Shown: in pieces, positions 15,962 to 58,401 of the stretch
How positions within the stretch are numbered: position 1 is the stretch's first letter
Layout of the letters: each line of letters opens with the position of its first letter
NCBI GenBank assembly: GCA_031374255.1
Contig: JANMFT010000102.1
Location: forward strand, 1-63,889
Direction: 5' to 3'
DNA: 63,889 bases
Source: Limoniibacter sp.
Lineage (GTDB): Bacteria > Pseudomonadota > Alphaproteobacteria > Rhizobiales > Rhizobiaceae
Position numbers and translations under genes: made by a program
The notes under the pieces: generated by a model
What the model saw: only the letters and a program-made list of their open reading frames with translations
Databases searched by the model: none
Told to the model about the DNA's origin: nothing

Positions 15962-15975
15962 GCAGTTTTTATAAC

Positions 15976-17029: not shown

Positions 17030-17098
17030 CATGATTGACTCTCGGCCCGAAAAACCGTTCTTTACGTTTTGTTAAGGATTGGGACGGGCGTTCAATTT

Positions 17099-17716: not shown

Positions 17717-17729
17717 TTTTCGCTTCCCT

Positions 17730-39294: not shown

Positions 39295-39297
39295 GAC

Positions 39298-40357: not shown

Positions 40358-40515
40358 ATCCGGATTCGTCTTTCGCTCATTTTGCTGCCTTACCGTACTT
40401 CGACCAAACCGCGCGTCATCCTATCTGAGATCCGGCGTTGCAAAAAAAGATGCTGGTTGTTTAGCGGTTCAAACAAACGGGATGTGTCAGAAGCGTCGGT
40501 GTTCAACTTGCTATT

Positions 40516-40535
40516 AAACCAATATATTGGTATTT
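40516..40535. promoter_or_regulatory. GntR-type operator candidate (site 2), in the divergent promoter region
   Basis: AAACCAATATATTGGTATTT contains the perfect 14-bp palindrome ACCAATATATTGGT (40518-40531). It sits in the spacer between TTGCTA (40508-13) and TATTTA (40531-36). Confidence 0.5.
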
Positions 40536-40655
40536 ATTGCCTGTCAACACGGATATTCGTTGCCGAAGGCTTATAGCTTCTGTGCCATAAAAGGTGACCA
40601 GTTGCAAAGCAAATGGGCCGGAGCTATTTGCGGAGTTAATGTAAAGGCGGATAAA

Positions 40656-41447: not shown

Positions 41448-41451
41448 TCCA

Positions 41452-42369
41452 ATGACCCGTTTGAAGTTTGCCTCCATAGGCGAATGCATGATTGAGCTTA
41501 ATAATATTGACCTGGTTCAGGGCGGAGCAAGCCTTGGCTTTGCTGGCGACACTCTGAATACTTCAGTTTACTTGTCACGGCTTGGTTGCGATGTCAGCTA
41601 CATCACGAACCTTGGAAGGGACCCGTTTTCGATCCAGATGCTGCGCCGGTTCGAATCCGAGGGGATAAACTGCGACTTGATCGGGCAGCATGAAACCTGC
41701 CTTCCCGGTGTCTATGCGATCGAAACTGATCATAGAGGTGAACGGTCTTTTCACTATTGGCGCGAGGCTTCTGCGGCACGGACGTTGTTTTCCGGCATTG
41801 GGGCCAGCCTTGTCGATCTGGCAGGTTTTGATGTGATCTATCTGTCGGGCATCACCCTTGCGATTTTGCCGCCTTCAGTGCGCGCAACATTAATTGCCAC
41901 TGCAACCGTGTTGAAGAATGAAGGCAAACAAGTGGTTTTCGACACCAACTATCGCCCCCGCCTGTGGCTTGACGATGCGACCGCCCGGGAATGTTTTGAT
42001 GCGATGTGGGCCGCAACAAGTGTGGCACTGCCGTCATATGATGATGAAGAACGGCTTTATCCCGGCTTGTCGCCTTTGCAAATCGTTGACCGGATCGCCG
42101 GATTGGGACCATCCGAAGTAGTATTGAAGAATGGCGCGCGCGGCCCGATGATACGGTATCGCGGTAAGACGGTTCAAACCGCAATGGCCGCTGCCGTGCA
42201 GGTCGTGGACACTTCGGGTGCGGGCGACAGTTTCAACGCGGGCTACCTGGCGGCGCGGTTGCGGGGCAAGACACCCATAAAAGCGGCTGCGGCGGGCCAC
42301 GCGCTTGCCAGCTTGGTTATTTGTCACCACGGCGCGGTGATTGTGCGAGAATCGATGCCTGTGCTTTAA
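41452..42369 (+). CDS. kdgK: 2-dehydro-3-deoxygluconokinase (PfkB family)
   Basis: PfkB signature DTSGAGDSFNAGYL near the C-terminus; 305 aa; genomic context with uxuA. Confidence 0.8.
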   Translation: MTRLKFASIGECMIELNNIDLVQGGASLGFAGDTLNTSVYLSRLGCDVSYITNLGRDPFSIQMLRRFESEGINCDLIGQHETCLPGVYAIETDHRGERSFHYWREASAARTLFSGIGASLVDLAGFDVIYLSGITLAILPPSVRATLIATATVLKNEGKQVVFDTNYRPRLWLDDATARECFDAMWAATSVALPSYDDEERLYPGLSPLQIVDRIAGLGPSEVVLKNGARGPMIRYRGKTVQTAMAAAVQVVDTSGAGDSFNAGYLAARLRGKTPIKAAAAGHALASLVICHHGAVIVRESMPVL

Positions 42370-42372
42370 CGG

Positions 42373-43596
42373 TTAGCAATTAATTCCCGTCACCAGCGGA
42401 TGATCCAGCGCCGTTATGATGCCGCGCAGCTCTGCCAACCCTTTCAGCCGCCCAATGGTGGGATAGCCGGGCTGGCCCTTGCGCCCGAGATCGTCCAAAA
42501 TGTCTTGCCCGTGATCGGGACGGAACGGAATGTTCCAGTCTTGGCGACCCTCTTTTCGGCGGCGGCGTTCTTCCGCCAGAATAGCCGCGATAACAGCGAC
42601 CATATCGGTGTCGCCGCCAAGGTGCTCGGCTTCATAAAAACTGTCGCGCAGGTTGCTGCCTTGACGGCGGACATTGCGCAAATGCAAGAAGTGCACGCGC
42701 GGCCCAAGGCGCTGCATCATCGCGGGTAAATCATTGTCAGCCCGGGCGCCCAAAGAGCCGGTGCAAAGTGTCACGCCATTGGCCGAAAGGTCGACGGCAT
42801 CCAACACCAACCGGTAGTCCGCTTCGGTTGACATGATCCTTGGCAAGCCCAGCAGCGGAAATGGCGGATCATCTGGATGACAGCAAAGCCGCATCCCCAA
42901 TTCCTGCGCCAGCGGCGTGACTTCGGCCAGAAAATCAATGAGATGTCCGCGCAGGGTATCTGCCGAGATTGCGCCATATTCCGCAAGATGCGCACGCACA
43001 TCGGCCAGCGTCATCGTTTCTGCCGCCCCCGGCAAACCAAATACGACATTGCTTGCCAAGGCTTTACAGGCATCATTGCTCATTTCCGCAAACCGGCAGG
43101 TCGCCGCCTCAATGATATGCCCTGGAAATTCGGCAGCCGCTCCGGGGCGTTTCAGAATGTGAATGTCAAATGCGGCAAAATCGACGATATCGAACCGCAT
43201 ACAGGTGCCGCCATTTGGTAGCCGCCACGCCAGATCGGTGCGGGTCCAGTCCAGCACCGGCATAAAGTTATAGCAGATCACCTCGATCCCCGCCTTGGAG
43301 ACGTTGGTCATACTGGTTTTCCAGTTGGCAATATGGTCGCGCCAAGCGCCCTTTTGCTTCCTTATGTCCTCTGACACCGGCAGGCTTTCAACCACGTCCC
43401 ACCGCAGTGTTGACGGCGCACCGTCCTTCATCCGGCCGATCATTGCATGTCTTGCGGCAATTTCCTCCGGCGACCAAATCGCTCCGGTTGGCACATGATG
43501 CAAAGCCGAGACGACGCCCTCGACGCCTGCCTGCATCATGTCGTTGACCGAAGCCAAATCTTTCGGCCCGAACCAGCGCCAAGTTTGGTGCATCAA
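42373..43596 (-). CDS. uxuA: mannonate dehydratase
   Basis: N-terminus MHQTWRWFGPKD is characteristic of UxuA; 407 aa. Confidence 0.9.
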   Translation of the reverse strand: MMHQTWRWFGPKDLASVNDMMQAGVEGVVSALHHVPTGAIWSPEEIAARHAMIGRMKDGAPSTLRWDVVESLPVSEDIRKQKGAWRDHIANWKTSMTNVSKAGIEVICYNFMPVLDWTRTDLAWRLPNGGTCMRFDIVDFAAFDIHILKRPGAAAEFPGHIIEAATCRFAEMSNDACKALASNVVFGLPGAAETMTLADVRAHLAEYGAISADTLRGHLIDFLAEVTPLAQELGMRLCCHPDDPPFPLLGLPRIMSTEADYRLVLDAVDLSANGVTLCTGSLGARADNDLPAMMQRLGPRVHFLHLRNVRRQGSNLRDSFYEAEHLGGDTDMVAVIAAILAEERRRRKEGRQDWNIPFRPDHGQDILDDLGRKGQPGYPTIGRLKGLAELRGIITALDHPLVTGINC

Positions 43597-45521: not shown

Positions 45522-46481
45522 TCACACGCTGTGGCGCAACGGCGTATTGCGAATAAATGCCTGCGTCGTTGAGTAGTCTATCAAACCAGCCTGACTGCCC
45601 AGCCCGGTTGCGTTTTGCGCCGATGATGCTTGCGCCAATTGAACCGTTTCTTGCGGCGTTAGCCCTTTGGTCAACCCCGTTGCAAACCCGCCATTGAAAC
45701 AATCGCCACAGCCACATGTGCACTTCACATCCACAACAAAGGCAGGCGATTGGAAAGTCGTGCCGTCTTTTGAGAAATAAAACGCCCCATCCGCCCCAAG
45801 GGTCAGGATGACGCAACCTGCCCCGCGGTCCAGCAAAAACTGCGCTAGATCATGATTTTCATGCATGCCTGAAAGAGCGCGGGCTTCTTCCTCTGAAGGC
45901 ATAAAGTAATCAGTGTATGGCAATAGCCGTTCCACTTTTGGCAGATCGGCTGCAGTGGATGCAAAAACATCCAGTGTGGTAATGACGCCGCGGCGCTTTG
46001 CTTCAACCATGACCTCCTTTGTGCGACCGGAATCGTCCATCCGGTTCATCAAGCCCACCCCGCCTATATGCAAAATTCGGGTGTCGAGCAGCCGGTCAAC
46101 TTGCGCGTCGCTGACGAAAAACCCATCCGTCGCACCGCGCTTATGGAGTGCCGGTCTTGCGCCATCAGGCCGCGTGGTGACGATTGAGCTGGATGTCGAA
46201 TAACCCTCGCAGCGCTGCATCATGTCGATATTGATGCCGTAATGGGCGAGTTTCATGAGCACCCAGTCGCCCATGTCATCATAACCGACGCCACCGATAG
46301 CTTGCACCTTCAACCCATGTTTGGCTGCAACAATGCTGGCCGACCCTGCAGCGCCTGAGACAGCAAGGGCAAACTCTTCCACAAAATATGTCCCGCCGCC
46401 CGGTGCAATGTGCGTGACCGGTCGGCAAAGGGCGTCAAACGTGTAAAAGCCCATACAAGACAGGTCGAACCGTGGGCTCAT
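45522..46481 (-). CDS. PfkB-family carbohydrate kinase
   Basis: 319 aa with the C-terminal PfkB signature ...TCGCGDCFNGGF. Last recognisable gene of the ABC operon. Confidence 0.88.
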   Translation of the reverse strand: MSPRFDLSCMGFYTFDALCRPVTHIAPGGGTYFVEEFALAVSGAAGSASIVAAKHGLKVQAIGGVGYDDMGDWVLMKLAHYGINIDMMQRCEGYSTSSSIVTTRPDGARPALHKRGATDGFFVSDAQVDRLLDTRILHIGGVGLMNRMDDSGRTKEVMVEAKRRGVITTLDVFASTAADLPKVERLLPYTDYFMPSEEEARALSGMHENHDLAQFLLDRGAGCVILTLGADGAFYFSKDGTTFQSPAFVVDVKCTCGCGDCFNGGFATGLTKGLTPQETVQLAQASSAQNATGLGSQAGLIDYSTTQAFIRNTPLRHSV

Positions 46482-47524
46482 ATCGCCCCCCGGATCCGTT
46501 CGCCATTTTCGCCAAAAAAGTAAAGCCGGGCCGGATCAAACCCGATACCAATAGGCTCGTCGATATCTGATCGGTAGTCCCGGGCAGCTTTAATTTCGAT
46601 TTGTTTGCTGCCAACCATCACTGTCAAATAGGTCATATCGCCGGTGGGTTCGACGCCGTAAACCAAGCCTTGGACATGATCACCGCCAACGCGGCAATCT
46701 TCCGGGCGTATTCCGAGTGTCACTTTGCCTTGCAGATGCGTCGGGCAAGGGGCTGTGATTCCGGGGGCCGTAAACCGGCCGTTTTTGACAACGCCCTCAA
46801 TCAAATTCATCGGCGGACTGCCGATAAAGCCCGCAACAAACGTATTGGCCGGATCAGAATAAATCTGATCCGGCGTGCCTACCTGTTGGATGACGCCATG
46901 GTTCATGATCACAATACGGTCAGCCAGTGTCATGGCTTCAATCTGGTCATGGGTGACATAGACCGTGGTGATTTTAAGTTGCCGTTGCAGGTGCTTGATT
47001 TGAACGCGCATGGACGCGCGCAATTTAGCGTCTAAGTTAGAAAGCGGCTCGTCCATGAGAAATACTTGCGGCTCGCGAACGACGGCCCGAGCAAGTGCTG
47101 CACGTTGGCGTTGGCCACCGGACAAGGCGCCAGGTTTTCGCTCAAGATAACTGCCCAGCTCAACCATATCGGCAGCGCGCCGGATGAGCTTGTCATGGTC
47201 TGCTTTCGGCACCCCGCGCATTCTCAGCGGAAAGCGGATGTTTTCGTAAATCGACATGTTGGGGTAGAGGGCATAACCCTGAAACACCATTGCAACATCG
47301 CGGTCTCGGGCATCGACATCATTCATCACTTCGGTGCCGATGATGACCTCGCCGTCACTCGGGTGTTCAAGCCCCGCGATCATGCGCATAGTGGTGGTTT
47401 TGCCGCAACCAGACGGGCCAAGCAGAACAAGAAACTCTTCGTCGTGGATGTCCAACGAAATATTTTGCACACCAACAAATGAACCATAACGTTTGGCAAT
47501 ATTTTTAAGGTGGATCGAAGCCAT
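46478..47524 (-). CDS. sugar ABC transporter ATP-binding protein (MalK/UgpC type)
   Basis: GPSGCGKTT, LSGGQRQRAALARA and FLMDEPLSNLD, plus a C-terminal regulatory (TOBE-like) domain. Confidence 0.93.
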   Translation of the reverse strand: MASIHLKNIAKRYGSFVGVQNISLDIHDEEFLVLLGPSGCGKTTTMRMIAGLEHPSDGEVIIGTEVMNDVDARDRDVAMVFQGYALYPNMSIYENIRFPLRMRGVPKADHDKLIRRAADMVELGSYLERKPGALSGGQRQRAALARAVVREPQVFLMDEPLSNLDAKLRASMRVQIKHLQRQLKITTVYVTHDQIEAMTLADRIVIMNHGVIQQVGTPDQIYSDPANTFVAGFIGSPPMNLIEGVVKNGRFTAPGITAPCPTHLQGKVTLGIRPEDCRVGGDHVQGLVYGVEPTGDMTYLTVMVGSKQIEIKAARDYRSDIDEPIGIGFDPARLYFFGENGERIRGAI

Positions 47525-47527
47525 CGT

Positions 47528-48388
47528 TTATCCTTTTACTGCGCCCATGGTCAGACCGCGCGATAAGTGTTTTTGTATGAGGATCACGAGGATCAAAATC
47601 GGCGCAAAAGCGAGGAAAGACACCAGCGCAATCGCATTATAAATCACGCCGTCGGAGCCACCGGTAAAATTGGCCAGCGCCACAGACATTGTATAGGCCT
47701 TTGATGTGGACGCTATCAGCAGCGTGAAGAGAAACTCATTGATTGCAAAGATAGTCGCGATGACAGCGGCCGTGATTATGCCCGGCAGGCAGGCAGGCAC
47801 GATGATTTCCCACAGGATCCGCAGGTCGCCGGCGCCATCTGTGCGCGCCGCATCTTCCAGCTCTTTGGGTATATCCAACATGTAGCTTCTGATAATCCAT
47901 GTCACCAAAGACAAGTTAATCGCAGCGTAAATCAGCATAAGTGCCCAGACTGTATCGAGAAGACCCATGTTGCGGAACAGAAAAAAGATAGGCACCGCTA
48001 CTATGGCCGGTGCCATCATTCGCGTGGACAAAATGTAAAAACCAATATCCTCGCGCCCTTTAAATTCGTAGCGCGCCAACGCATAGGCAGCCGGAATGGC
48101 CAACGCTAAGTCGATAATCACAGAACCCGACACCGCCAGAAATGAGTTGCGCAAGTACTGCCCGATAGGCCAATCGCTCATGAGTAGGTGCCATGCGTCC
48201 AGACTGAAAGTCGGCCAATAAATTGGCGATGGGGTTATGATTTCGGTGCGCGGACGGAACGCAATTGTGAAAAACCACAAAATTGGCAGCACGCAACACG
48301 CGGCCCAAGAGCCTAACACCAGATAGCGAAGCACCATGCTTTCGCCGCGGGATTTGCGCTTAACCAGCCTTGCCGTGCTTTTGGACAT
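47528..48388 (-). CDS. carbohydrate ABC transporter permease (CUT1 type)
   Basis: Six-TM permease with EAA-like loop ...ELEDAARTDGAG. Confidence 0.9.
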   Translation of the reverse strand: MSKSTARLVKRKSRGESMVLRYLVLGSWAACCVLPILWFFTIAFRPRTEIITPSPIYWPTFSLDAWHLLMSDWPIGQYLRNSFLAVSGSVIIDLALAIPAAYALARYEFKGREDIGFYILSTRMMAPAIVAVPIFFLFRNMGLLDTVWALMLIYAAINLSLVTWIIRSYMLDIPKELEDAARTDGAGDLRILWEIIVPACLPGIITAAVIATIFAINEFLFTLLIASTSKAYTMSVALANFTGGSDGVIYNAIALVSFLAFAPILILVILIQKHLSRGLTMGAVKG

Positions 48389-49326
48389 TATTTTTTCCCT
48401 GAGTGAAAAGCACGCCGCACTACAGTTTGCGCGATGATAATGGTCAAGACCAGCATCAACACCGACGCAGCGGAAGCATAACCGAAGTTAAACATGCGGA
48501 AGCCTTGGCGGTAAATGAAAAAGCTCATCGTTTCAGTCGCGCCGCCCGGGCTGCCTTGGGTCATAATATAAACATTGGTGAACATCGTGGTAATGTCGAT
48601 GCCACGCAAAGTGATGGCGACAACAATAATCGGGCGCATCATTGGCAATGAAATATTCCAAAAGATCGCAGGCCAACTAGCGCCATCAAGGCGCGCCGCC
48701 TCCTCAATCTCTTGATCTTGGCCCTGTAGTGCGGCCACAAATATGATAAATAAAAATGGCGTCCACTGCCAGACATCGGCCACGATCAAGGTCAAACGGG
48801 CGAGCGGAATCGAAGCGATCCAATCCACATTTTTGGAAACAATTCCAAGGCCCATTAAAATGTCTGAGATCACACGGCCGTCGTTAAAACCAAGCTTCCA
48901 AATGAACGCTACCGCCGACGGCATGAAAAGCATGGGCATGAGATAGACGATGCGCCAGCCTTTTATGAACGGGTCGCGGTAACAGAAATAGGCGACCGTC
49001 ATGGCAATTACGGTCTGCAGCACCAAAGAAATGCCACCGATAATTGCCGTGTTACCCAATGCTGCCCAAAATTCGCGGTCGGACATCAGACGGGTGTAGT
49101 TATCAACCCCGGCCCAATTCCAGGCCTTGAAGGTAACGACAAACAGACTTTGATAAATTGCAAAAACGCCGGGATAAAGCGTGATTGCCATCAAATACAG
49201 CAGTGCCGGCGCAACCAATAAATAGGGGAACGCTTTGCGCAGAGCGGGTGATCGGCGACGCGGAGCTCGCATGGGGGCGACTTGCGCCGCCCCCTTGATC
49301 CGACTTGGGTGGATGATTGTGTCCAA
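48388..49326 (-). CDS. carbohydrate ABC transporter permease (CUT1 type)
   Basis: Six-TM permease with EAA-like loop ...EIEEAARLDGAS. Confidence 0.9.
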   Translation of the reverse strand: MDTIIHPSRIKGAAQVAPMRAPRRRSPALRKAFPYLLVAPALLYLMAITLYPGVFAIYQSLFVVTFKAWNWAGVDNYTRLMSDREFWAALGNTAIIGGISLVLQTVIAMTVAYFCYRDPFIKGWRIVYLMPMLFMPSAVAFIWKLGFNDGRVISDILMGLGIVSKNVDWIASIPLARLTLIVADVWQWTPFLFIIFVAALQGQDQEIEEAARLDGASWPAIFWNISLPMMRPIIVVAITLRGIDITTMFTNVYIMTQGSPGGATETMSFFIYRQGFRMFNFGYASAASVLMLVLTIIIAQTVVRRAFHSGKK

Positions 49327-49329
49327 GGC

Positions 49330-50883
49330 TCAGAACGGCAATGCTTTGCCGGCGCCAACATAAGTGCCAGCTTTGACATCTGCATATTTGACGGGCGCTT
49401 TGTCTGTGCCAAAACCGTTCTTTGCCATGATGGCCTTCCACGCTGTCTGGCCGTTTTCCAGAGCCTCTTTGCCCGTGATCTGGCCGGTAATTGCCCGGTT
49501 GATCTCATTGCCCAAGGCTTGCTCCATTTCGAACATGCCGGGCAGGCGTGGACTACACCAAGCATGCGGCAGGCTATCTGACCAGACTTTCATAGGCTGA
49601 GAAACCATACGCAGCTTTTCGTTGGTCAGGACTGATTTATAGCCTGGAGCCACACCGTTAGCATTAACCTCGTTCATTGCCATAATTGAACTTGTGGTCA
49701 GGAAGGCCAGCATCAGGAAGGCACCTTCTGGGTTTTTGCTCGATGCTGTCACAACCGATGTAGAGCCCGCAATGTTTGGTGGTGCAAAAACGCCACCGGC
49801 GATGCGCGGCTCGTATATCGTGACGAAATCATCAACGATTTGGCTTTGATCGGGGCGCATGGCCTGCGTCCCGCTGTCCTGCCAGCTGATGTTGGCGGCA
49901 ACCTGTCCGCCCAGCCAAGCTGCGCGGTTTTCACCCCAACCAGCACCGGCTACACCTTCGATTGCGTTTTTGGAAAGTGCAAGCAGCGTATCCAAACCCT
50001 TCATCGAAGCATCAGACGTCAGCAATGGCTCAAAGTTGTCATCAAACAATTGCATGCCTGCCTGCGCAGCGATGTGCTCCCAAGAATAGGTCGACCAGAA
50101 GCCGCGTGCACCCAGCAAACCAACGCCGGCAACACCGCCGCCCAATTTGTTGGCTTCCGCAGTGACACGGATCAATTCATCGTAGGTTGGAACCGAGTTG
50201 GCGAGATCGATTTTTCCGCCAAGAATTTTTTCCATGGATGATTTCCGCAAGTGAACCATCTGGATGTCGCAGTCGAATGGAATGCCAACCAGTTTGCCAC
50301 CAAAGTAACCATAGTTGAGGCGGTAGGTATCGTGGAAATCATCCAGCGGCAGTGCCCATTTCGCAGCATAGTCGTCCAATGGTGCCAAGAAGCCCGGACC
50401 CGCAAAATCGCCCAGCCAAGCCGAGAAAAACTGCAAGGCGTCAAACGAAGCATTGCCGGAAATAAATTCAGAGATGGCTTTGTCGTAGATGCTGTCGTCT
50501 GGAATTGGGACCAGTTCGACTTTGATGCCTGACAGCGCTTCAAACGGTGCAATAGCCGTCGCTGCTGATTCTTGATCCGCCGCGCCAATGGCAAAACGCA
50601 CAGTTGTGCCTGACAGCTCGGTGCGGACTTTCTCCCAATCGACGGTGCGAATCCAGTCTTTTGCAGGATCCCAAAGTGGAGTGTTGTCGAGACTATAGAG
50701 TTTGCGGTAATCCTCGCGGACATAACCCTCAACAGAAATGCCATCGAGAATTTTTTGAACGTCGCCGAGCCCGGCTTGGGCAAAAGCGGGAATTTTAAGG
50801 CTGGACATGCCAGCGGCAAGTCCGAGCGCCGTGCCGGTTCTCAAGAACGAGCGACGGGAAACCTTGTTTAACTTCAGTGCCAT
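49330..50883 (-). CDS. extracellular solute-binding protein (large CUT1-type, Tat signal)
   Basis: Twin-arginine signal SRRSFLRTGTALGLAAG...AFA; 517 aa. SD GGAGG lies 8 nt upstream. Confidence 0.88.
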   Translation of the reverse strand: MALKLNKVSRRSFLRTGTALGLAAGMSSLKIPAFAQAGLGDVQKILDGISVEGYVREDYRKLYSLDNTPLWDPAKDWIRTVDWEKVRTELSGTTVRFAIGAADQESAATAIAPFEALSGIKVELVPIPDDSIYDKAISEFISGNASFDALQFFSAWLGDFAGPGFLAPLDDYAAKWALPLDDFHDTYRLNYGYFGGKLVGIPFDCDIQMVHLRKSSMEKILGGKIDLANSVPTYDELIRVTAEANKLGGGVAGVGLLGARGFWSTYSWEHIAAQAGMQLFDDNFEPLLTSDASMKGLDTLLALSKNAIEGVAGAGWGENRAAWLGGQVAANISWQDSGTQAMRPDQSQIVDDFVTIYEPRIAGGVFAPPNIAGSTSVVTASSKNPEGAFLMLAFLTTSSIMAMNEVNANGVAPGYKSVLTNEKLRMVSQPMKVWSDSLPHAWCSPRLPGMFEMEQALGNEINRAITGQITGKEALENGQTAWKAIMAKNGFGTDKAPVKYADVKAGTYVGAGKALPF

Positions 50884-51051
50884 TATTTATCCTCCCATTG
50901 CGATAGATAGAATGCTCCGCAGCCACCCATGATGCGTGGCGACAAACGCAATTCCGAATATGCGTTGGCCAGCGGCATGTGAACTTTCGTTACACTGTAT
51001 GATAGTGTGTGCAGAATTTTAACGATGTCAATCAGAATCTTTCGCAATAAA

Positions 51052-51066
51052 TGCTGCATTGCAGCA
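51052..51066. promoter_or_regulatory. perfect 7-1-7 palindrome in the divergent promoter region (operator candidate)
   Basis: TGCTGCA-T-TGCAGCA, between the binding-protein operon and the dehydrogenase/E1 operon. Confidence 0.3.
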
Positions 51067-51135
51067 AGCACTAACAGTTGACAAAATAACAAAAGTTCAA
51101 ATAGCTATGATGATAGTTTGATGAGGAGTTTGGAA

Positions 51136-52455
51136 ATGCCGACCAATGTCGCCCTAACCGGCCTGGCCAAAGACTTGGCCGTACGCGCCGATATTGGCCG
51201 CCCGATCCGTATCGGCCTTGTGGGCGCAGGTGAGATGGGCACAGACATTGTCAGCCGCGTTTCGCATATGCAGGGGATCGAGATCGGTGCCATCAGCGAA
51301 TTGAAAGCAGGCGCTGCACGCAAATCGGTGGAGATCGCTTACGGAACCGATGCTTTGGCGCGCGAAGTTTCAATAGCCGATGCTGCAAATGCCGCCATGG
51401 AAGATCGCCAGATAGCCATTACCGATAACGTCGATGCCCTGCTCGACGCGGGTCTGATCGATGTTGTGATTGATGCAACCGGTATTCCATCCGTTGGCGC
51501 CGAAATTGGTTTGCGGGCTATGGAGCGCGGTAAGCATCTTGTGATGATGAATGTCGAGGCGGACGTCACAATTGGCGCATATCTTCGCTCGGAAGCAGAC
51601 CGTTTGGGAGTTGTTTATTCGTTGGGCGCGGGAGATGAGCCCTCATCGTGTATGGAACTGATCGAGTTTGTAAGCGCGATGGGCCACCGCATTATTTCTG
51701 CGGGCAAGGGCAAAAACAATCCGCTGAACATTGATGCGACGCCGGATGTTTACAATGAAGAAGCTGTGCGCCGCCATATGAACCCGCGCATGTTGGTCGA
51801 GTTCGTCGATGGCTCAAAAACCATGGTTGAAATGGCAGCTATCGCCAATGCAACCGGCTTGACCCCCGACAAGCCGGGGATGCACGGGCCAGCTGCCGGC
51901 CGCGATGAATTGAACAAAATGCTGGTTCCGCAAAGTGCCGGTGGTTTACTATCATCCTCCGAAGGGCGTGTGGATTATACAATTGGTAAGGGTGTCGCTC
52001 CGGGCGTCTTTGTGGTTGCAGAAATGGATCACCCGCGTATCCGCGAGCGCATGGAAGACCTCAAAATGGGTGAAGGTCCCTATTTCACATTTTTTAGGCC
52101 TTATCATCTGACCTCACTTGAGGTGCCGCTTACCTGTGCCCGCGCCGTGCTTTACGGAAAAGCAGATATGGTGCCGATGCCAGTGCCCGTTGCAGAAGTC
52201 TGTGCGGTAGCCAAAAAAGCCATGGCCGTTGGCGAAACACTCGATCAAATCGGTGAGTATTGCTATCGCGCTTGGATCATGACGGCGCCTGAAGCGCGCC
52301 AAGCCAATGCCATTCCTTGCGGCTTGCTGGCGGGCGCTAAAGTAACCGCCCCAATCAAAAAGGGCGAATTGATCACCAACGCAAACACTGCCGTGCCGGA
52401 GGGCAGCTTCATCGCTGTGCTCCGCGCGCGGCAAGACAAAATGTTGGGTCTTTGA
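51136..52455 (+). CDS. NAD(P)-dependent oxidoreductase with C-terminal SAF domain (COG4091-like, homoserine-dehydrogenase-like fold)
   Basis: Rossmann motif IRIGLVGAGEMG and a SAF-like C-terminal region. Start ATG 51136 has GAGGAG 7 nt upstream. The ORF opens at 51118. Confidence 0.75.
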   Translation: MPTNVALTGLAKDLAVRADIGRPIRIGLVGAGEMGTDIVSRVSHMQGIEIGAISELKAGAARKSVEIAYGTDALAREVSIADAANAAMEDRQIAITDNVDALLDAGLIDVVIDATGIPSVGAEIGLRAMERGKHLVMMNVEADVTIGAYLRSEADRLGVVYSLGAGDEPSSCMELIEFVSAMGHRIISAGKGKNNPLNIDATPDVYNEEAVRRHMNPRMLVEFVDGSKTMVEMAAIANATGLTPDKPGMHGPAAGRDELNKMLVPQSAGGLLSSSEGRVDYTIGKGVAPGVFVVAEMDHPRIRERMEDLKMGEGPYFTFFRPYHLTSLEVPLTCARAVLYGKADMVPMPVPVAEVCAVAKKAMAVGETLDQIGEYCYRAWIMTAPEARQANAIPCGLLAGAKVTAPIKKGELITNANTAVPEGSFIAVLRARQDKMLGL

Positions 52456-52457
52456 AG

Positions 52458-53456
52458 ATGTTAGCGCCCGATAACCGTCCGTTTGCCATACGCCATTTTG
52501 CGCCCGAAGCTTTGCGCGAAGCATTAAAGAAGATGTATCTCATCCGCCGGTTCGAAGAAGGCGCGGAAGACAGCTACACACGCGGCTTGATCCACGGGAC
52601 AATGCACTTGTCGATTGGGCAAGAAGCAAGCGCGATGGCAACCTGCATGGAGTTGACCGATGCAGACAAAATCACATCAACCCATCGCGGCCACGGCCAT
52701 TGTATTGCCAAAGGTGCCGATGTCGGCCGAATGTTCGCAGAGTTTTTCGGCAAAGAAACTGGCTACTGCCACGGGCGCGGCGGCTCAATGCATATTGCCG
52801 ACGTTAAAACCGGTAACCTTGGCGCAAACGGCATCGTTGGCGGCGGCCTGCCGATCGCTGTTGGGGCTGCATTGTCGGCAAAACGGCTTGGCAAATCCGA
52901 TGTGACGGTGTGCTTTTTTGGCGACGGTGCGAATAATGAAGGCGCTTTCCACGAAGCGCTGAACATGGCCTCGGTCTGGAAACTGCCCGTTATTTTTGTA
53001 TGTGAAAACAACGGATACGGCATGTCGACTTCGACGGCACGGTCAACCGCGGTCAAGTTTATATCCGAACGGGCGGCCGCCTATTCCATGCCGGGTGTTA
53101 CCGTGGATGGAAACGATTTTTCTGCAGTGGCAGAAGCGCTTCACATTGCAATTGCGCGGGCGCGAGCTGGCAATGGGCCGTCTCTGGTAGAGAACTTAAC
53201 GTACCGTTGGCGCGGTCATTCGAAATCAGACCGCAACCGCTATCGCACAAAAGAAGAAATTGAAGACTGGATCAAACGAGATCCAATCGCGCGCTTTCAA
53301 GCCGAACTGATTGCGCATGGTGTTTTGGATGAAGTTGAAGCCGAAGCCGCCGCTGCCGAGGCGATTGCTGACGTGGAGGCTGCTATAGTGTTCGCAAAAT
53401 CCAGCACAGCGCCCAACATTTCTGAAGTCACCCGCTACGTTTATGCGGAGCATTAA
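52458..53456 (+). CDS. TPP-dependent dehydrogenase E1 alpha subunit (acetoin/pyruvate dehydrogenase E1 family)
   Basis: TPP-binding motif [37 protein letters not shown]. The ORF opens at TTG 52452. Confidence 0.92.
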
Positions 53457-53457
53457 A

Positions 53458-54471
53458 ATGAACGTGATCATCCAAGACCAGACCACACGCACTTTGTCTT
53501 ATGCCGAGGCCATCCGCGAAGCTATGGCAATGGCCATGGAAGCTGATCCAACTGTTATTTTGATGGGCGAGGACATCGGTGTTTATGGAGGTGCGTTTCA
53601 GGTAACGCTGGATTTATTGGAGCGCTTCGGCCCTGACCGGGTTATGGATACCCCGATTTCTGAACTCGGTGGCGCTGGCGTTGCAGTGGGTGCGGCGCTG
53701 ACCGGGCTAAAGCCTGTTTTCGAATTCCAATTTTCCGATTTTGCGATGCTGGCAATGGAACAGATCGTCAATCAAGCAGCAAAATTGCGTTATATGCTTG
53801 GCGGTGAAGCGTCAGTTCCAGTGGTATTCCGTATGCCATCAGGCTCTGGCACCGGTGCTGCCGCACAGCACAGCCAAAGCATTGAGGCTTGGTTTGGCCA
53901 TGTTCCCGGTCTGAAGGTGCTGCAACCTTCAACACCGGAAGATGCAAAAGGCATGCTGCTGGCCGCACTGGCTGACCCTGATCCGGTGATGATTTTTGAG
54001 CACAAGCTTTTATACAAAATGAAAGGCTATGTGCCCGCCGGCCATTATTTAACGCCGATTGGCAAAGCGGCTGTGCGCCGCGAAGGAAGCGATGCCACCA
54101 TTGTTGCGGGTTCAATCATGGTGCATCGCGCATTGGAGGCCGCAGAAAAACTGGCCGCAGATAATATCAGCGCGGAAGTGATTGACCTGCGTTCAATCCG
54201 GCCAATAGACCATGAAACCATTTTGGCGTCAGTTCGCAAAACCGGACGGCTCATGGTGGTGTATGAGGGCGTCAAAGCATTTGGCGTCGGGGCAGAAATC
54301 AGCGCGATGGTGGCTGAAAGTGATGCATTTGATTTTCTCGATGCTCCTATCCTGCGCCTTGGCGCGGCTGACGCGCCAGTGCCTTATAATCCCGACCTTG
54401 AACGGGCCTCCGTGCCACAGGTTGCCACAATTGAGGCTGCTGCCCGCCGCCTGACCAGCCGCGAGATTTGA
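53458..54471 (+). CDS. TPP-dependent dehydrogenase E1 beta subunit
   Basis: Typical E1 beta N-terminus ...[29 protein letters not shown]; about 337 aa. ATG 53458 follows GCGGAG. Confidence 0.92.
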
Positions 54472-54472
54472 G

Positions 54473-55031
54473 ATGCCAGTCGAAGTGATTCTGCCCAAGG
54501 TCGATATGGATATGACCCATGGTACGATTGCCGTTTGGCATGTGGCCGAAGGCGACACGGTTCAAAAAGGGGCCGCTTTGTTTGACATTGAAACAGACAA
54601 GGCAGCCATGGAAGTTGAAGCGCCTGCAACTGGAACCTTGCGCCAGATTTCAGCCAAAGCAGGCGACAAAATTGAGGTCGGCACTGTGGTGGCTTGGCTT
54701 TACAGTGCGGACGAGATTTTAGGTCCAGCCATAGAGCCTGCAAATTCTGTGCAGGTTGACAACACGGGGGCGGCTCCACCAGTTCTGATACAGCCCGTCG
54801 AAGTGATCATGCCCAAGGTCGACATGGATATGACACATGGCACATTGGCAGCCTGGCATGTTTCTGAAGGGGCAAGTGTCAAACAAGGAACCACCCTGTT
54901 TGATATCGAAACCGACAAAGCCGCGATGGAGGTGGAAGCGCCTGCGACAGGCACTTTGCATCACATCAATGCAAAGCCCGGCGATAAAATCGCAGTCGGT
55001 TCTGTGGTGGCTTGGATTTATCCTGCAGGTG
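54473..55031 (+). repeat. tandem duplication of the lipoyl-domain coding segment
   Basis: Residues 2-79 and 108-185 align without gaps, with 60 of 78 residues identical by hand count. DNA similarity is visible over about 230 nt. Confidence 0.85.
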
Positions 55032-56083
55032 CGATTGTCGGTGCTATAACACTGTTTGAAGCTGAGATTGAGCCTGCTGCTGTTGAACAAATAGCGGGAC
55101 CTGTGTTGCGTGCCACCCTGCCAAACACAGTTGAAATGACTGCCATTCGCGCCACTCCAGCGGCGCGCAAGGCCGCGCGTATAGCAGGCTTAGCGCTTGA
55201 AACAGTGCGCGGGTCAGGGCCTTTAGGCCGGCGACAGCGCGATGATATTACTCCGGTCACGCGGCCACTACCGGTTGTGGAAGCGCCCCAAACTTGGGTT
55301 CCTGAACGCGGGCCACTATACATCAGCCGGCGGCCCGGTGACGGCATTCCGATCATGCTGATCCACGGTTTTGCAGCCGACAGCCAGTCTTGGGCCCCTT
55401 TTGAAAAAGCGCTTGGCCAGGAACACCCGCTTATACGCGTTGATTTACCCGGTCACGGCAAATCCCCCAAACAAGGCATAAGTAGCTTTCCTGAACTCGT
55501 TAGCATCGTCTCGAAGGCATTCGACCAAGCGACACATGATGTTGGACCTGTGCATTTGCTTGGCCATTCGCTTGGCGGCGCTCTAGCGATTGCTCTTGCA
55601 GATATTCGCGGTCGCAAAATAGCAAGCCTATCGGCTATCGCACCGGCAGGTCTTGGACCGGAGATTGATGCTGATGCGTTGGGCGGTATTGTGCGCGCGA
55701 CCAGAGTTGAAAGCCTTGCCCCATGGCTTCGACGTTTAACGGCCACGCCCGAAGGCATTAGTGATGACTATGCACGCGCGGCAATGTCCTCTCGGTCTGA
55801 CCCCGCATTGCGGGCCGTACAGTCTGAGATGACGGCGGCTTTATTTCCCGACGGCGTGCAATCGTTCGATCTGCGCGCAGCGTTATCGCGATTAAAGTGC
55901 GCCACTCAGATATTGTGGGGGCGGCAAGATCATATTTTACCAAGTCGCCACGCACTTGCAACGAACGGCGATTTTGCTATTCATCTTCTAAATGCGGCAG
56001 GCCATGTGCCGCAAATCGAATGTCCGGAGCGGGTCGCGCGTATCTTCAAGCATTTTGTTGCAGGATATCGGGTACTCGTTTGA
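54473..56083 (+). CDS. AcoC-like E2 component: two lipoyl domains + E3/peripheral-subunit-binding domain + alpha/beta-hydrolase fold
   Basis: Two copies of ...LFDIETDKAAMEVEAPATGTL... (lipoyl-Lys motif). PSBD-like segment IRATPAARKAARIAGLALETVRGSGPLGR. Hydrolase nucleophile elbow GHSLGG. Confidence 0.88.
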   Translation: MPVEVILPKVDMDMTHGTIAVWHVAEGDTVQKGAALFDIETDKAAMEVEAPATGTLRQISAKAGDKIEVGTVVAWLYSADEILGPAIEPANSVQVDNTGAAPPVLIQPVEVIMPKVDMDMTHGTLAAWHVSEGASVKQGTTLFDIETDKAAMEVEAPATGTLHHINAKPGDKIAVGSVVAWIYPAGAIVGAITLFEAEIEPAAVEQIAGPVLRATLPNTVEMTAIRATPAARKAARIAGLALETVRGSGPLGRRQRDDITPVTRPLPVVEAPQTWVPERGPLYISRRPGDGIPIMLIHGFAADSQSWAPFEKALGQEHPLIRVDLPGHGKSPKQGISSFPELVSIVSKAFDQATHDVGPVHLLGHSLGGALAIALADIRGRKIASLSAIAPAGLGPEIDADALGGIVRATRVESLAPWLRRLTATPEGISDDYARAAMSSRSDPALRAVQSEMTAALFPDGVQSFDLRAALSRLKCATQILWGRQDHILPSRHALATNGDFAIHLLNAAGHVPQIECPERVARIFKHFVAGYRVLV

Positions 56084-56102
56084 ATGACGGAAAGTCATAT
56101 TG

Positions 56103-57080
56103 ATGCTATCCATCACACCGTCACTCGTTTCCCAAAGTGATGCTGATCGGCTAAGAGCCCGCGCAGTGTGGTTGTACCATGTTGAGGGATTAACCCAGAA
56201 TGACATCGCCAAGCAATTGGGCATCAACAGGATTATGGTTGTAAGGCTTTTGGCTGATGCGCGGCGGCGCAATGAAGTTCGGGTCACAATTTCAGCACCT
56301 CTGACCGAATTGATGCAAATCGAGCGCGAGGTCGAGTTAAAGTATGGCATCGGACGCGTTATTGTCGCGCCATTTTCCGACCCAGAAGGCGACCCTGTCA
56401 AAGTCATTGCCGCTGCTGCCGGCGCTTTCATATCCGCTGAAATGAAAGCTGGAATGACTGTCGGCGTTGGTTGGGGACGCACACTTTACAACACTTTGCC
56501 GTTTATTTCGGGCGAAACTCTTGAGGATTTCCGTGTTGTCTCACTGCTTGGTGGCATTGCGGCGGCGCGGCGTTTTAACCCTGCTGAGTTTGCGTGGCAA
56601 TTTGCCGAACTGTTTCAAGGCGAAGGTTTTCTCATACCCGCCCCCGCTGTGGTTGACAGTCCCGATACAAAATATGCGCTGTTGGAGCGATGCGGCCTGT
56701 CTGCGATTTTTGAAATGGCAGACAAGCTCGACATCGCGCTTTTATCTGTCGGTGGCATTACTACGCTGACAACGAGCTATCGAACAGGTTATCTGTCGGA
56801 AGCTGATCGCAGATCATTGATTGATGCAGGGGCAATTGGCGACGTGCTCTACAACTTCATTGATGCGGAAGGAAATTTGGTTGACCACGAAGTCAACGGC
56901 AGAGTCATTTCCGCCAATTTAACCCGCTTGCGCCGCACCCCCGAACGGGTGCTGATCTCTGGCGGAAAAGATAAGTTTGTTGCACTGAAGGCAGCAATTC
57001 GCACATTAGAACCAACGGTTTTGGTCACTGATGAATATTCCGCCAAGTTTTTATTAGCTAAAGACCTCAGAACAAAATAA
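56103..57080 (+). CDS. SorC/DeoR-type sugar-binding transcriptional regulator
   Basis: N-terminal HTH ...AVWLYHVEGLTQNDIAKQLGINRIMVVRLLADARRRNEVRV and a C-terminal sugar-phosphate-binding domain. Confidence 0.88.
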   Translation: MLSITPSLVSQSDADRLRARAVWLYHVEGLTQNDIAKQLGINRIMVVRLLADARRRNEVRVTISAPLTELMQIEREVELKYGIGRVIVAPFSDPEGDPVKVIAAAAGAFISAEMKAGMTVGVGWGRTLYNTLPFISGETLEDFRVVSLLGGIAAARRFNPAEFAWQFAELFQGEGFLIPAPAVVDSPDTKYALLERCGLSAIFEMADKLDIALLSVGGITTLTTSYRTGYLSEADRRSLIDAGAIGDVLYNFIDAEGNLVDHEVNGRVISANLTRLRRTPERVLISGGKDKFVALKAAIRTLEPTVLVTDEYSAKFLLAKDLRTK

Positions 57081-57230: not shown

Positions 57231-58031
57231 TCAGCCATCTGCCAGCAATTTATGAAACTGCGCTAATTCTAAATCGTTCATTTTCACTAGATTTTCCGGT
57301 TTTGGATAAGCACCATCGCCAACATCAGAGACAAATTCACGAAACGCGGCGATGCGCTCCAATTGCAACCGGTCAAATTCAACTGCAAAATTCCTGTAAA
57401 CCTTGGAGTGCCTTGGCATATGCCCGCGGTTTTGTCCGAGGATGTCTTCGGCAAACAAATATTGCGCGTCGCAACCGGCGCCAGCCCCCATTGACCATAA
57501 CAATAAACCGGTTCGTGTGCTGATTTCACTGGCAACGTCGTCTGGCACTACTTCGATCTCAAGTGCAAAAGCACCGGCAGCTTCGTAGGCTTTGACTTCT
57601 TTCAACAATGCAATTGCTGCCTCAGCTGTTTTAGCCACAGCGCGGAAACCACCGGTCCAGGTTGCACGTGACGGCACAAGGCCAACATGGCCAACGACCG
57701 GAATATGTTCGCGCGCTAAAGCCTCAACTGTTCCAAGCCCACCGCTGCAATAGATTGCGTCCGCTTCCGCCAGCATCATCATGCAGGCAAAGCGGTGAAA
57801 ATCATCGCGGGTACCTGCTTCCAGATGCGTTTTGCCTGTCATTGAAAACAGTGTTGGCGCAAGTTCGCGGTAACGCGGATGGGTCACCAGTTCCGGCGGA
57901 ACAGAAACAATGTCGATACCTGCGGCTTCAGCTGCCGCCGCTTCGTCCAGCGTCATTACCCGCAGCATGGTCAACTGCCGCAGGCCCTTTAGCGTCCGCA
58001 AATCAGCTATAGTCGGTTTTGTGCGGGTCAT
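57231..58031 (-). CDS. ketopantoate hydroxymethyltransferase (PanB)-family paralogue, divergent
   Basis: 266 aa from ATG 58031. VVGHVGLVPS and ALEIEVVP resemble PanB motifs, but the N-terminal GDS-type metal motif as I recall it from E. coli PanB is not evident. Confidence 0.7.
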   Translation of the reverse strand: MTRTKPTIADLRTLKGLRQLTMLRVMTLDEAAAAEAAGIDIVSVPPELVTHPRYRELAPTLFSMTGKTHLEAGTRDDFHRFACMMMLAEADAIYCSGGLGTVEALAREHIPVVGHVGLVPSRATWTGGFRAVAKTAEAAIALLKEVKAYEAAGAFALEIEVVPDDVASEISTRTGLLLWSMGAGAGCDAQYLFAEDILGQNRGHMPRHSKVYRNFAVEFDRLQLERIAAFREFVSDVGDGAYPKPENLVKMNDLELAQFHKLLADG

Positions 58032-58062
58032 TTTGTTGCGCTCACAATCAACTGAAAAACCA

Positions 58063-58401
58063 TCACTCAACCGCCAACTGGACGCGCCCGTCACTAACCC
58101 GAACGGCATGGCAGCGCAGGTTAACGCAAGCCGGGATCCGGATGGCAGCGCCTGTGCGAAAGTTGAAACGCCCATTATGTCTGAGGCATTCAATAGTATC
58201 ATCCATTACCAAACCATCGGCCAGATGCACGCCTTCATGAGTGCACATGCCGTCAGTGGCATGAAAGCTGTCATCTGTGGCGCGGTAAATCGCATAGGTT
58301 TGAGCACCCGCATCAAAGCGCATCACGTCTTCACGGTCGATATCTTCGATACTGCAAACATCAATCCAAATGGTCATATTTGTGGTCATAGTTATCCTCA
58401 A
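58063..58401 (-). CDS. Rieske [2Fe-2S] ferredoxin (MocE-like oxygenase ferredoxin subunit)
   Basis: Rieske ligands CTHEG ... CLRHNG; 112 aa. Confidence 0.88.
   Translation of the reverse strand: MRITMTTNMTIWIDVCSIEDIDREDVMRFDAGAQTYAIYRATDDSFHATDGMCTHEGVHLADGLVMDDTIECLRHNGRFNFRTGAAIRIPACVNLRCHAVRVSDGRVQLAVE

Follow-up and report, generated by a model that had tools for sequence, protein, structure and literature searches.

What would an acetoin-dehydrogenase-type complex do in a locus for the uptake and phosphorylation of a sugar or polyol? The question is raised by a stretch of DNA from Limoniibacter sp. (contig JANMFT010000102.1; 63,889 nt, hereafter the window), in which positions 45522-57080 hold two divergent operons. 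The leftward operon encodes an ABC importer and a PfkB-family kinase. The rightward operon encodes an oxidoreductase, the E1 alpha, E1 beta and E2 components of a thiamine pyrophosphate (TPP)- and lipoyl-dependent complex, and a SorC/DeoR-type regulator. An earlier note on this DNA had proposed that an imported sugar or polyol is phosphorylated and/or oxidised to a compound of the type CH3-CO-CHOH-R, with a 1-deoxy-ketose as one example, and that this compound is then split by the TPP/lipoyl system. Our analysis supports the scheme and points to a candidate substrate. Known enzyme families are assembled here into what is apparently an undescribed pathway. On the evidence below, the locus may be a module for the inducible catabolism of 2-C-methyl-D-erythritol (ME), or of a branched C5 polyol very close to it, which would be converted via MEP (2-C-methyl-D-erythritol 4-phosphate) and DXP (1-deoxy-D-xylulose 5-phosphate) to acetyl-coenzyme A (acetyl-CoA) and glyceraldehyde 3-phosphate (GAP). 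We put the probability of this reading at about one half.

Identity of the oxidoreductase

The first gene of the rightward operon had been described as a COG4091-like NAD(P) oxidoreductase with a SAF domain. The assignment as an oxidoreductase stands, whereas the generic label has to be replaced. The protein matches PF21135 (“Oxidoreductase DRL, catalytic domain”) along the entire profile (positions 1-164 of 164, E 2.6e-66), and its N-terminal NAD(P)-binding domain matches PF03447 (E 5e-7). Using phmmer, residues 7-445 of the query were aligned with residues 1-438 of the chain in PDB entries 3UPY/3UPL (E 1e-196, approximately 72% identity). The open reading frame (ORF) as called, 51118-52455, encodes 445 aa; it was re-started at the ATG at 51136, giving a protein of 439 aa that matches the start of the homologues.

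Functional DXR-II is set apart from the inactive DLO1 and DLO2 by the residues Gly121, Thr229, His250, Arg320 and Val351 in Brucella numbering (PMC3847144). Positions 121, 229, 250, 320 and 351 of the 3UPY chain match this numbering, which ties the PDB entry to the Brucella protein. In the alignment with 3UPY the window protein keeps all five residues, held in the motifs PSVGAE, DGSKTM, GMHGP, FRPYH and PVAEV. Because the diagnostic residues are conserved at every matching position, we assign the oxidoreductase to DXR-II (also DRL), as an orthologue of the Brucella enzyme.

DXR-II takes the place of the classical DXP reductoisomerase, DXR-I, in Brucella and some other bacteria, and eleven members of the DXR-II clade complement dxr mutants (PMC3847144). 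The interconversion of DXP and MEP is the sole known reaction of the family, and DXR-II is so far known only from isoprenoid synthesis. The assignment of the oxidoreductase therefore points to MEP and DXP as the pair of intermediates. The latter, CH3-CO-CHOH-CHOH-CH2OP, is an alpha-hydroxy methyl ketone like acetoin, with a phosphorylated tail. A 2013 study found DXR-I to be lost in 31 of 53 DXR-II genomes, which by subtraction leaves 22 of the 53 with both enzymes, and it raised the question of what would make a redundant DXR-II evolve where DXR-I is present (PMC3847144). According to a 2026 review, the distribution of DXR-II is still without a defining pattern (PMC13001223).

More distant members of the family (40-50% identity) adjoin other sugar enzymes. 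In one context, a split transketolase with its N- and C-terminal halves as separate genes lies directly upstream (locus L089, 7208-10305, and locus L090, 936-4033). In another, the neighbours are an FGGY kinase, a SIS protein and a Zn-dependent alcohol dehydrogenase (L086, 150-4769). The DXR-II family seems to be generally embedded in sugar/polyol catabolic clusters.

Relation of the E1/E2 complex to acetoin dehydrogenase

E1 alpha and E1 beta are of the heterotetramer type of TPP-dependent enzymes (PF00676; PF02779, PF02780), and E1 beta scores 402 bits with NF006667 (cut-off 321). E2 is made up of two lipoyl domains, an E3-binding domain (PF02817, residues 225-259) and an alpha/beta-hydrolase acyltransferase domain, and it contains two ETDKA lipoylation motifs and a GHSLGG nucleophile elbow. 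With 421.7 bits against a cut-off of 307 in the model NF011457, it is AcoC-like, as the earlier note had read it.

Three acetoin systems, chosen by gene context, served as comparators. The cluster of Paracoccus denitrificans holds an acoX-like gene, E1 alpha/beta, AcoC, butanediol dehydrogenase, a sigma-54 regulator and rpoN; that of Acinetobacter variabilis holds lipA, E1 alpha/beta, E2, lpdA, acetoin reductase and butanediol dehydrogenase; and that of Enterococcus faecalis holds a sigma-54 regulator, lpdA, E1 alpha/beta and E2. E1 alpha was placed in a neighbour-joining tree built from 322 columns with 100 bootstraps. In it, all ten DXR-II-linked sequences, two distant metagenomic ones among them, form a single clade with 100% bootstrap support. 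The three context-validated AcoA sequences form a separate clade (91% support). The window E1 alpha is 46-52% identical to these AcoA (46% to the aco E1 alpha of Paracoccus denitrificans), versus 69-78% to the DXR-II-linked Alphaproteobacteria in the tree. Nesting inside true acetoin dehydrogenases had been named beforehand as a result that would speak against the proposed pathway; the window sequence is not nested there and belongs to the clade with full support.

The companion genes of the comparator clusters were also looked for. The annotated ORFs of the window showed no AcoR, AcoX, butanediol dehydrogenase/acetoin reductase or AcoL, nor any sigma-54 activator, and tblastn with the lipoamide dehydrogenase of a sister locus as query found no E3 gene in the whole window. 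The absence of E3, butanediol dehydrogenase and a sigma-54 activator claimed earlier is thus borne out. An identity as acetoin dehydrogenase was considered and rejected: the E2 model was passed, but the E1 clade test and the companion-gene test failed, and the locus is therefore not to be filed as an acetoin dehydrogenase.

Residues 251-270 of E1 alpha (window 53202-53261) align with a loop of human pyruvate dehydrogenase (PDH) E1 alpha which we take to be the phosphorylation loop lining the active site. The basic residues R254, K258, R261 and R263 of this stretch reach a conservation of 95% or more among 54 DXR-II-linked sequences, and their equivalents are absent from all three context-validated AcoA. 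The basic loop may be a phosphate-binding feature. It fits an anionic substrate but proves nothing.

In Clostridioides difficile, the “aco” operon (acoABCL) has a regulator of the SorC/DeoR type, and the E1 alpha it encodes groups within the DXR-II-linked clade and not with the context-validated acetoin dehydrogenases (L101, 4004-9924). According to a preprint, the regulation of this operon is unlike that of other aco systems, and the growth of C. difficile is not supported by acetoin (bioRxiv 10.1101/2023.07.28.551048).

Conservation of the locus in other genomes

A profile scan with an alignment of six DXR-II sequences, using one genome per species, returned at least 577 relatives, and the best 80 loci were analysed. 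All 80 are from Alphaproteobacteria, with 70-87% DXR-II identity, and the counts from them are not phylogenetically independent. Deeper relatives were sampled singly from their contigs, most of which are short. The ORFs of the sister loci were picked by the GC content of third codon positions and clustered, and recurrent clusters were annotated. Counts refer to 77 loci with enough downstream sequence or to 53 loci with full flanks, 43 with E1 and 10 without.

In 67 of the 77 loci, E1 alpha and E1 beta follow DXR-II on its strand and start at a distance of less than 200 nt. The most conserved partner of E1 is DXR-II, not the ABC/kinase operon. The arrangement recurs in dozens of genomes and is not due to chance. 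A lipoyl E2 then follows E1, with a catalytic domain that is of two unrelated types depending on lineage: the alpha/beta-hydrolase type in Rhodobacterales and Ochrobactrum, and the canonical DHRxxDG type in Mesorhizobium, Sinorhizobium and Shinella. This switch is a non-orthologous displacement inside an otherwise conserved operon. Furthermore, E3 (lipoamide dehydrogenase) comes after E2 in eight sister loci. Together with the lipA gene on plasmid pRM41A, described below, the swapped E2 types and the presence of E3 indicate a genuine oxidative, acyl-CoA-forming complex.

The uptake systems vary. Among the full-flank loci, 15 of 53 have a CUT1 ABC importer as in the window, 14 of 53 a phosphotransferase system (PTS) of the glucitol family (GutM, IIC, IIBC, IIA), 9 of 53 a CUT2 ABC importer and 5 of 53 a galactitol-family PTS; some loci carry two modules, so that these counts exceed the 35 loci concerned. 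An uptake module is present in 34 of the 43 loci that contain E1 versus one of the 10 that lack it (Fisher p ~9e-5; the loci are related). Orthologues of PfkB were found in 27 of 28 loci with only ABC importers and in none of 14 with only a PTS (p ~3e-10; the loci again being related). Such complementarity would be expected if the imported compound must end up phosphorylated, either by the kinase or by the PTS. A SorC homologue is present in 29 of the 53 loci. A lack of the linkage to the ABC/kinase operon in other genomes had been the second result named beforehand as speaking against the proposed pathway; linkage to a module for uptake and phosphorylation is in fact conserved elsewhere. The more specific linkage to a CUT1 importer and PfkB holds for 15 of 53 loci only, and a PTS or CUT2 importer takes their place elsewhere.

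More distant loci share parts of the arrangement. On a Pseudoroseomonas plasmid (DXR-II 55% identical) we found a glucitol PTS, a homologue of h244 (a conserved protein of the leftward operon, see below), DXR-II, E1 alpha/beta, AcoC and a galactitol PTS. One metagenomic contig (DXR-II 45% identical) has the order PTS-IIA(gut)-DXR-II-E1 alpha-E1 beta and another (42%) the order DXR-II-SorC-E1 alpha-E1 beta. The E1 alpha of these three loci is 55-69% identical to that of the window; in the two metagenomic contigs the values are 55-57% for E1 alpha and 61% for E1 beta. In Listeria monocytogenes, DXR-II (39% identical) is located between a SorC regulator and a GutM/glucitol-PTS IIC-IIB-IIA operon (L095, 5790-10602). 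It is annotated just as “SAF domain-containing protein”, and there are no E1 genes nearby.

The E1/E2 genes are also missing from some close relatives. The flanks of DXR-II are syntenic between Phyllobacterium (L035, L052) and Paenochrobactrum (L065, L074), at about 7500-19000, with an unknown 436-aa protein upstream and a pntB-like gene and others downstream. The 3.5-kb segment with E1 alpha/beta and E2 is present in Phyllobacterium and absent from Paenochrobactrum, where no remnants were seen and DXR-II is left alone.

A proposed pathway for methylerythritol

We consider it probable, from the identities of the enzymes and their constant neighbourhood, that the imported compound gives rise to MEP/DXP-type intermediates on which DXR-II and the E1/E2 complex act in succession. 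In the pathway we propose, the polyol would be imported by the Tat-exported binding protein and the CUT1 ABC transporter, and ME would be phosphorylated to MEP by the PfkB kinase, or in other genomes by the PTS. DXR-II would then convert MEP to DXP with NADP+, an oxidation and rearrangement that is the reverse of the biosynthetic direction. The TPP-bound E1 alpha/beta would attack the C2 carbonyl of DXP, releasing GAP and leaving hydroxyethyl-TPP, the same chemistry as in acetoin dehydrogenase. The two-carbon unit would pass oxidatively to the lipoyl arm of E2 and, via the alpha/beta-hydrolase domain, to CoA, giving acetyl-CoA. A lipoamide dehydrogenase from elsewhere in the genome would be recruited by the E3-binding domain of E2 and reoxidise the lipoyl arm. 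The SorC-type repressor would bind the TGAACTTT inverted repeats over the divergent promoters and be released by a phosphorylated intermediate.

Both PTS families of the sister loci carry polyols. The sorbitol PTS of Salmonella transports ME, according to the title of Testa et al. 2004 (J Bacteriol 186:473). The earlier idea of a sugar or polyol converted to a methyl ketose and cleaved by the TPP/lipoyl system is therefore supported in outline, with the assignment of DXR-II pointing to MEP/DXP and the PfkB/PTS pattern to phosphorylation. Likewise, the claim that the pathway is undescribed agrees with our searches of open-access PMC and bioRxiv, although an earlier description elsewhere is possible. 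In these sources no paper was found on the catabolism or utilisation of methylerythritol or on DXR-II with acetoin-type complexes, and nothing on deoxyxylulose with acetoin dehydrogenase or on 2-methyltetrols with bacteria.

Several points weigh against this pathway. The identities of the genes, the operon structure, the conservation of the linkage and the separation of E1 from the sampled context-validated acetoin enzymes are direct observations, whereas the pathway steps are all deduced from sequence and gene context. The equilibrium of DXR favours MEP, and reverse flux would need the pull of the irreversible cleavage. The sampled loci are mostly from related Alphaproteobacteria, which limits the independence of the counts in phylogenetic terms. 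Many loci encode two enzymes outside the proposed scheme, a Zn-dependent alcohol dehydrogenase and an FAD dehydrogenase resembling GlpD; as a speculation, these might feed in other methyltetrol stereoisomers. The conserved proteins h244 and h245 have no place in the scheme either. With 517 aa the binding protein is large, and its similarity to PDB proteins that bind sugars and polyols is weak. The Listeria locus has DXR-II without E1, so some loci skip the cleavage, and the direction of the reaction is ambiguous there. Finally, the C. difficile operon of the same E1 alpha clade is reported to be acetoin-regulated (bioRxiv 10.1101/2023.07.28.551048).

Alternative explanations

Reverse flux through DXR-II would be unneeded if 1-deoxy-D-xylulose, or another 1-deoxy sugar, were imported, phosphorylated to DXP and cleaved by E1/E2, with DXR-II working forward and diverting part of the DXP to MEP for isoprenoids. 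The linkage of DXR-II and E1 fits this explanation too, and the Listeria operon with a PTS and DXR-II in the absence of E1 suits salvage. We nevertheless find it unlikely. In this case catabolism could do without DXR-II, although it heads the operon and is its most constant gene. The uptake systems that stand in elsewhere are of the polyol PTS families of glucitol and galactitol, whereas deoxyxylulose is a ketose, and 22 of 53 DXR-II genomes (by subtraction, PMC3847144) already have DXR-I for the forward reaction. It has also to be considered that the imported compound is another polyol or sugar, with the DXR-II orthologue acting on a related branched or linear phosphate and E1 cleaving another methyl-ketose phosphate. 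Approximately 72% identity to the Brucella enzyme, the retention of all residues that separate DXR-II from DLO and the complementation of dxr mutants by eleven clade members (PMC3847144) argue against such a shift in substrate. DLO-type relatives do occur in other sugar contexts (FGGY-SIS-Zn-alcohol dehydrogenase, split transketolase), extra Zn-dependent alcohol dehydrogenase and GlpD-like genes are found in many loci, and the PDB neighbours of the binding protein are too distant to name its ligand. We give this explanation a low probability as well.

A biosynthetic role, in which E1 acts as a DXP synthase that joins hydroxyethyl-TPP from pyruvate or acetoin to GAP and DXR-II then forms MEP, appears improbable. 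Lipoyl-E2, E3 and lipA are not needed for biosynthesis, nor are polyol importers, a kinase and a sugar-phosphate repressor, and the module is plasmid-borne and strain-variable. In its favour, a mutated PDH E1 (aceE) can rescue Escherichia coli that lacks DXS (PMC3424233), and E1 and DXR-II are translationally coupled. Most improbable of all is an ordinary acetoin/2,3-butanediol dehydrogenase system that adjoins sugar genes by chance. It would account for an E2 that passes the NCBIfam AcoC equivalog model, for the 46-52% identity of E1 alpha to context-validated AcoA and for the reported acetoin response of the C. difficile relative, the growth of which is however not supported by acetoin (bioRxiv 10.1101/2023.07.28.551048). 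It would leave unexplained that E1 alpha belongs to a clade of its own (100% bootstrap), that AcoR or another sigma-54 activator, AcoX and butanediol/acetoin reductase are missing, unlike in the comparator clusters, and that the linkage to DXR-II and polyol uptake is conserved.

Gene organisation and promoter region

ORF calls recovered all ten genes listed for the two operons by the earlier note at their coordinates, and the domains found with Pfam and NCBIfam agree (Table 1). The rightward genes are tightly packed, with overlaps of 4 nt (DXR-II/E1 alpha) and 14 nt; the gaps measure 1 and 16 nt. The leftward operon extends beyond PfkB by two further conserved genes, h245 and then h244, which are translationally coupled. 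The start of h245 is 23 nt past the PfkB stop, the start codon of h244 overlaps the stop of the gene upstream, and the two frames share 8 nt.

Table 1. Features of the divergent locus in the Limoniibacter sp. window
Feature	Position	Strand	Evidence or remark
h244, 209 aa	44140..44769	-	last gene of leftward operon; conserved, no family match
h245, ~245 aa	44762..45499	-	directly downstream of PfkB; conserved, no family match
PfkB-family sugar/polyol kinase; proposed methylerythritol kinase	45522..46481	-	PF00294, E 3e-39
CUT1 ABC ATPase, UgpC/MalK type	46478..47524	-	ABC_tran, OB_MalK, TOBE_2 domains
ABC permease, MalG/UgpE-like	47528..48388	-	PF00528 (BPD_transp_1)
ABC permease, MalF/UgpA-like	48388..49326	-	PF00528 (BPD_transp_1)
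Solute-binding protein, 517 aa, predicted Tat export, periplasmic	49330..50883	-	SBP_bac_1 + SBP_bac_8
Divergent promoter/operator region	50884..51135	no strand	alignment with 13 orthologous loci
TGAACTTT element	50980-50987	+	
Palindrome TGCTGCATTGCAGCA	51052-51066		partly conserved
-35-like TTGACA	51078-51083		conserved; bracketed by the TGAACTTT/AAAGTTCA inverted repeat
AAAGTTCA	51092-51099		inverted copy of TGAACTTT
Ribosome-binding site GAGGAG	51123-51128		
DXR-II (DRL), proposed MEP -> DXP direction	51136..52455	+	PF21135 DRL_cat, E 2.6e-66
TPP-dependent E1 alpha, proposed DXP-cleaving enzyme	52452..53456	+	PF00676, E 8e-91
E1 beta	53443..54471	+	Transket_pyr (PF02779) + Transketolase_C (PF02780)
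AcoC-type E2, 536 aa	54473..56083	+	NF011457 above cut-off
SorC/DeoR-type regulator, sugar-phosphate-sensing by family	56100..57080	+	PF04198 Sugar-bind, E 5.6e-51 + N-terminal helix-turn-helix

The importer is of the CUT1 type, with an SBP_bac_1 protein, two BPD_transp_1 permeases and a MalK/UgpC-type ATPase with a TOBE domain. The ATPase scores 425.7 bits with NF008653 (cut-off 432). The binding protein carries the N-terminal twin-arginine motif SRRSFL, in line with the Tat export that had been predicted for it. Its nearest PDB sequences are weakly similar (5CI5, 5IAI, 9XF5, 6DTQ, 1EU8 and 4RYA; E 8e-15 to 2e-8); among them are a maltose-binding protein (6DTQ) and an entry titled as a sorbitol binder (4RYA). 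The PDB sequence neighbours of the binding protein and of the kinase are too distant for assignment of a ligand. All NCBIfam equivalog models were below cut-off for the PfkB kinase (best 111 bits vs 300), and the regulator is also below cut-off with the Bacillus DeoR model (192 vs 420 bits) and the LsrR model (117 vs 486 bits).

No Pfam or NCBIfam match was found for h244 or h245. A homologue of h244 is present in 28 of the 53 full-flank DXR-II loci whichever uptake system they have, those of the PTS type included, and just 283 homologues (E<=1e-5) were found among 5.8 billion proteins, all of them named hypothetical. Its AlphaFold2 model is all-alpha (pLDDT 83.5) and gave no Foldseek match in the PDB at E<=0.001. 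Homologues of h245 occur in 13 loci. This protein is remotely related to a family of the PTS-type loci, c28 (hhalign probability 95%).

The 252-bp intergenic region was aligned with 13 orthologous loci, revealing the conserved blocks GAAC...TTGACA...AC..A.GTTCA. There are four matches to TGAACTTT in the 64-kb window, two of which lie in the divergent region in inverted orientation. We propose these TGAACTTT/AAAGTTCA sites as candidate SorC operators. In a consensus promoter/terminator scan, sites were no more numerous than in shuffled sequence.

Just upstream of the locus, positions 36944-43596 hold a hexuronate-type catabolic set, which consists of a mannitol-dehydrogenase-family enzyme, a GntR/FCD regulator, a second PfkB kinase (41452-42369) and a UxuA mannonate dehydratase (42373-43596). 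This set is not conserved beside DXR-II in other genomes. On the other side, a 323-aa ORF (57231-58202, minus strand) matches Pantoate_transf (PanB) at residues 138-301 only (profile positions 99-259). The protein may be PanB-like but truncated or divergent, its N-terminal part being unrelated; alternatively, the ORF may have been called with a start too far upstream. Farther away, a cellulose synthase cluster (5447-15825, minus strand) encodes a BcsA-like glycosyltransferase with a PilZ domain, BcsB and BcsN, and also an 825-aa ORF (7055-9532) that has no Pfam match. A GGDEF/PAS diguanylate cyclase (3882-5318) and putA (335-3730) lie near this cluster.

Mobility of the module and a possible origin of DXR-II

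The module is accessory and mobile. In a protein-level search, DXR-II homologues were found on 87 plasmids, of which 14 are typed as conjugative. When the whole locus was compared with plasmids by megablast, just two short matches were obtained, one of which is in an unannotated record. A complete module, annotated in the standard way, is found in Sinorhizobium meliloti Rm41 on pRM41A, an accessory plasmid that is conjugative (L094). On one side are two hypothetical proteins, a sugar kinase and an ABC transporter with its binding protein. On the other side are a sugar-binding regulator, an “NAD(P)H-dependent oxidoreductase”, E1 alpha, E1 beta, E2 (13365-14654), lpdA and lipA, which encodes lipoyl synthase. 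A GlpD-like dehydrogenase and a zinc-dependent dehydrogenase lie farther out. In Fuscovulum, a fragment of an IS240-family transposase is located just downstream of the SorC gene (L001/L002, 16315-16758). This fragment and the complete module on a conjugative plasmid indicate horizontal mobility.

We tentatively suggest that DXR-II was catabolic in origin, that it evolved and spreads as the leading gene of a mobile module for ME and perhaps for 2-methyltetrols generally, and that its essential biosynthetic role in Brucella and related bacteria is a later co-option that followed the loss of DXR-I and of the cleavage genes. The Paenochrobactrum loci that lack E1/E2 would exemplify such a loss of cleavage genes. 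If true, an origin in a mobile polyol module would answer why DXR-II coexists with DXR-I and why its spread is patchy and associated with plasmids.

ME is released by plants and by stressed bacteria, and it is chemically identical to one of the 2-methyltetrols derived from isoprene. The proposed pathway, if true, would be the first route for microbial use of methylerythritol and a sink for ME and isoprene-derived methyltetrols, and annotation would be corrected in hundreds of genomes. DXR-II is a drug target in Brucella, and a complex that degrades DXP is something that engineers of the MEP pathway might exploit or need to avoid. Each step of the pathway is testable with compounds already used in MEP-pathway research.

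Comparison with known systems

The two opening steps in the MEP pathway (DXS, DXR-I/DXR-II) involve the same compounds, GAP, DXP and MEP, and include the DXR-II family characterised in Brucella abortus. In the proposed pathway they would be traversed in reverse, and an oxidative, lipoyl-dependent cleavage of the C-C bond would stand in place of the decarboxylative condensation by DXS. The genes also differ in being linked to transporters, in being often plasmid-borne and in the proposed control by a repressor.

The Lsr system for autoinducer-2 (LsrACDB, LsrK, LsrR, LsrG, LsrF) imports its substrate by an ABC transporter and phosphorylates it, a SorC-family repressor senses the phosphorylated C5 1-deoxy compound, and the pathway ends in acetyl-CoA and a triose phosphate. 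The logic of import, phosphorylation and SorC-type control is alike here, and so are the proposed end products. There are however no homologues of LsrK (FGGY), LsrG or LsrF, the regulator reaches 117 bits where the LsrR cut-off is 486, and the proposed cleavage depends on TPP and lipoyl groups and not on a thiolase-like enzyme of the aldolase family.

In the erythritol catabolism of Brucella and rhizobia (EryA, EryB, EryC and EryD with an ABC transporter), a tetritol is phosphorylated under a SorC-family regulator and converted to erythrose-4-phosphate. The proposed import and phosphorylation of a tetritol and the family of the regulator are shared, and an EryB-like GlpD dehydrogenase is found in some sister loci. 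The window has no EryB- or EryC-type genes, and a rearrangement of the skeleton by DXR-II followed by TPP-dependent cleavage is proposed instead. No enzyme specific to the Lsr or the erythritol pathway is present in the locus.

The sorbitol PTS of Salmonella (Testa, Cornish, Poulter 2004) is of the glucitol family, which adjoins DXR-II-E1 in 14 of the 53 full-flank loci and DXR-II in Listeria. In Salmonella, ME uptake would be a side activity feeding isoprenoid synthesis, whereas a dedicated system with a cleavage complex is proposed here.

The closest system by chemistry is the acetoin system (AcoA/AcoB/AcoC/AcoL) of Cupriavidus, Pseudomonas, Paracoccus, Acinetobacter and Bacillus. Both have E1 alpha/beta and a lipoyl E2 with an alpha/beta-hydrolase domain, and the proposed reaction is the same, with CH3-CO-CHOH-R giving an aldehyde and an acetyl group on lipoamide. 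The locus described here differs in the separate clade of its E1 alpha with extra basic residues in the loop, in its SorC regulator and in lacking AcoR, AcoX and the reductase, as well as E3 in the window. Furthermore, DXR-II precedes the complex, polyol uptake and kinase genes flank it, and the proposed substrate is the phosphorylated compound DXP. If this is true, sugar phosphates would be a new class of substrates for complexes of the acetoin dehydrogenase type.

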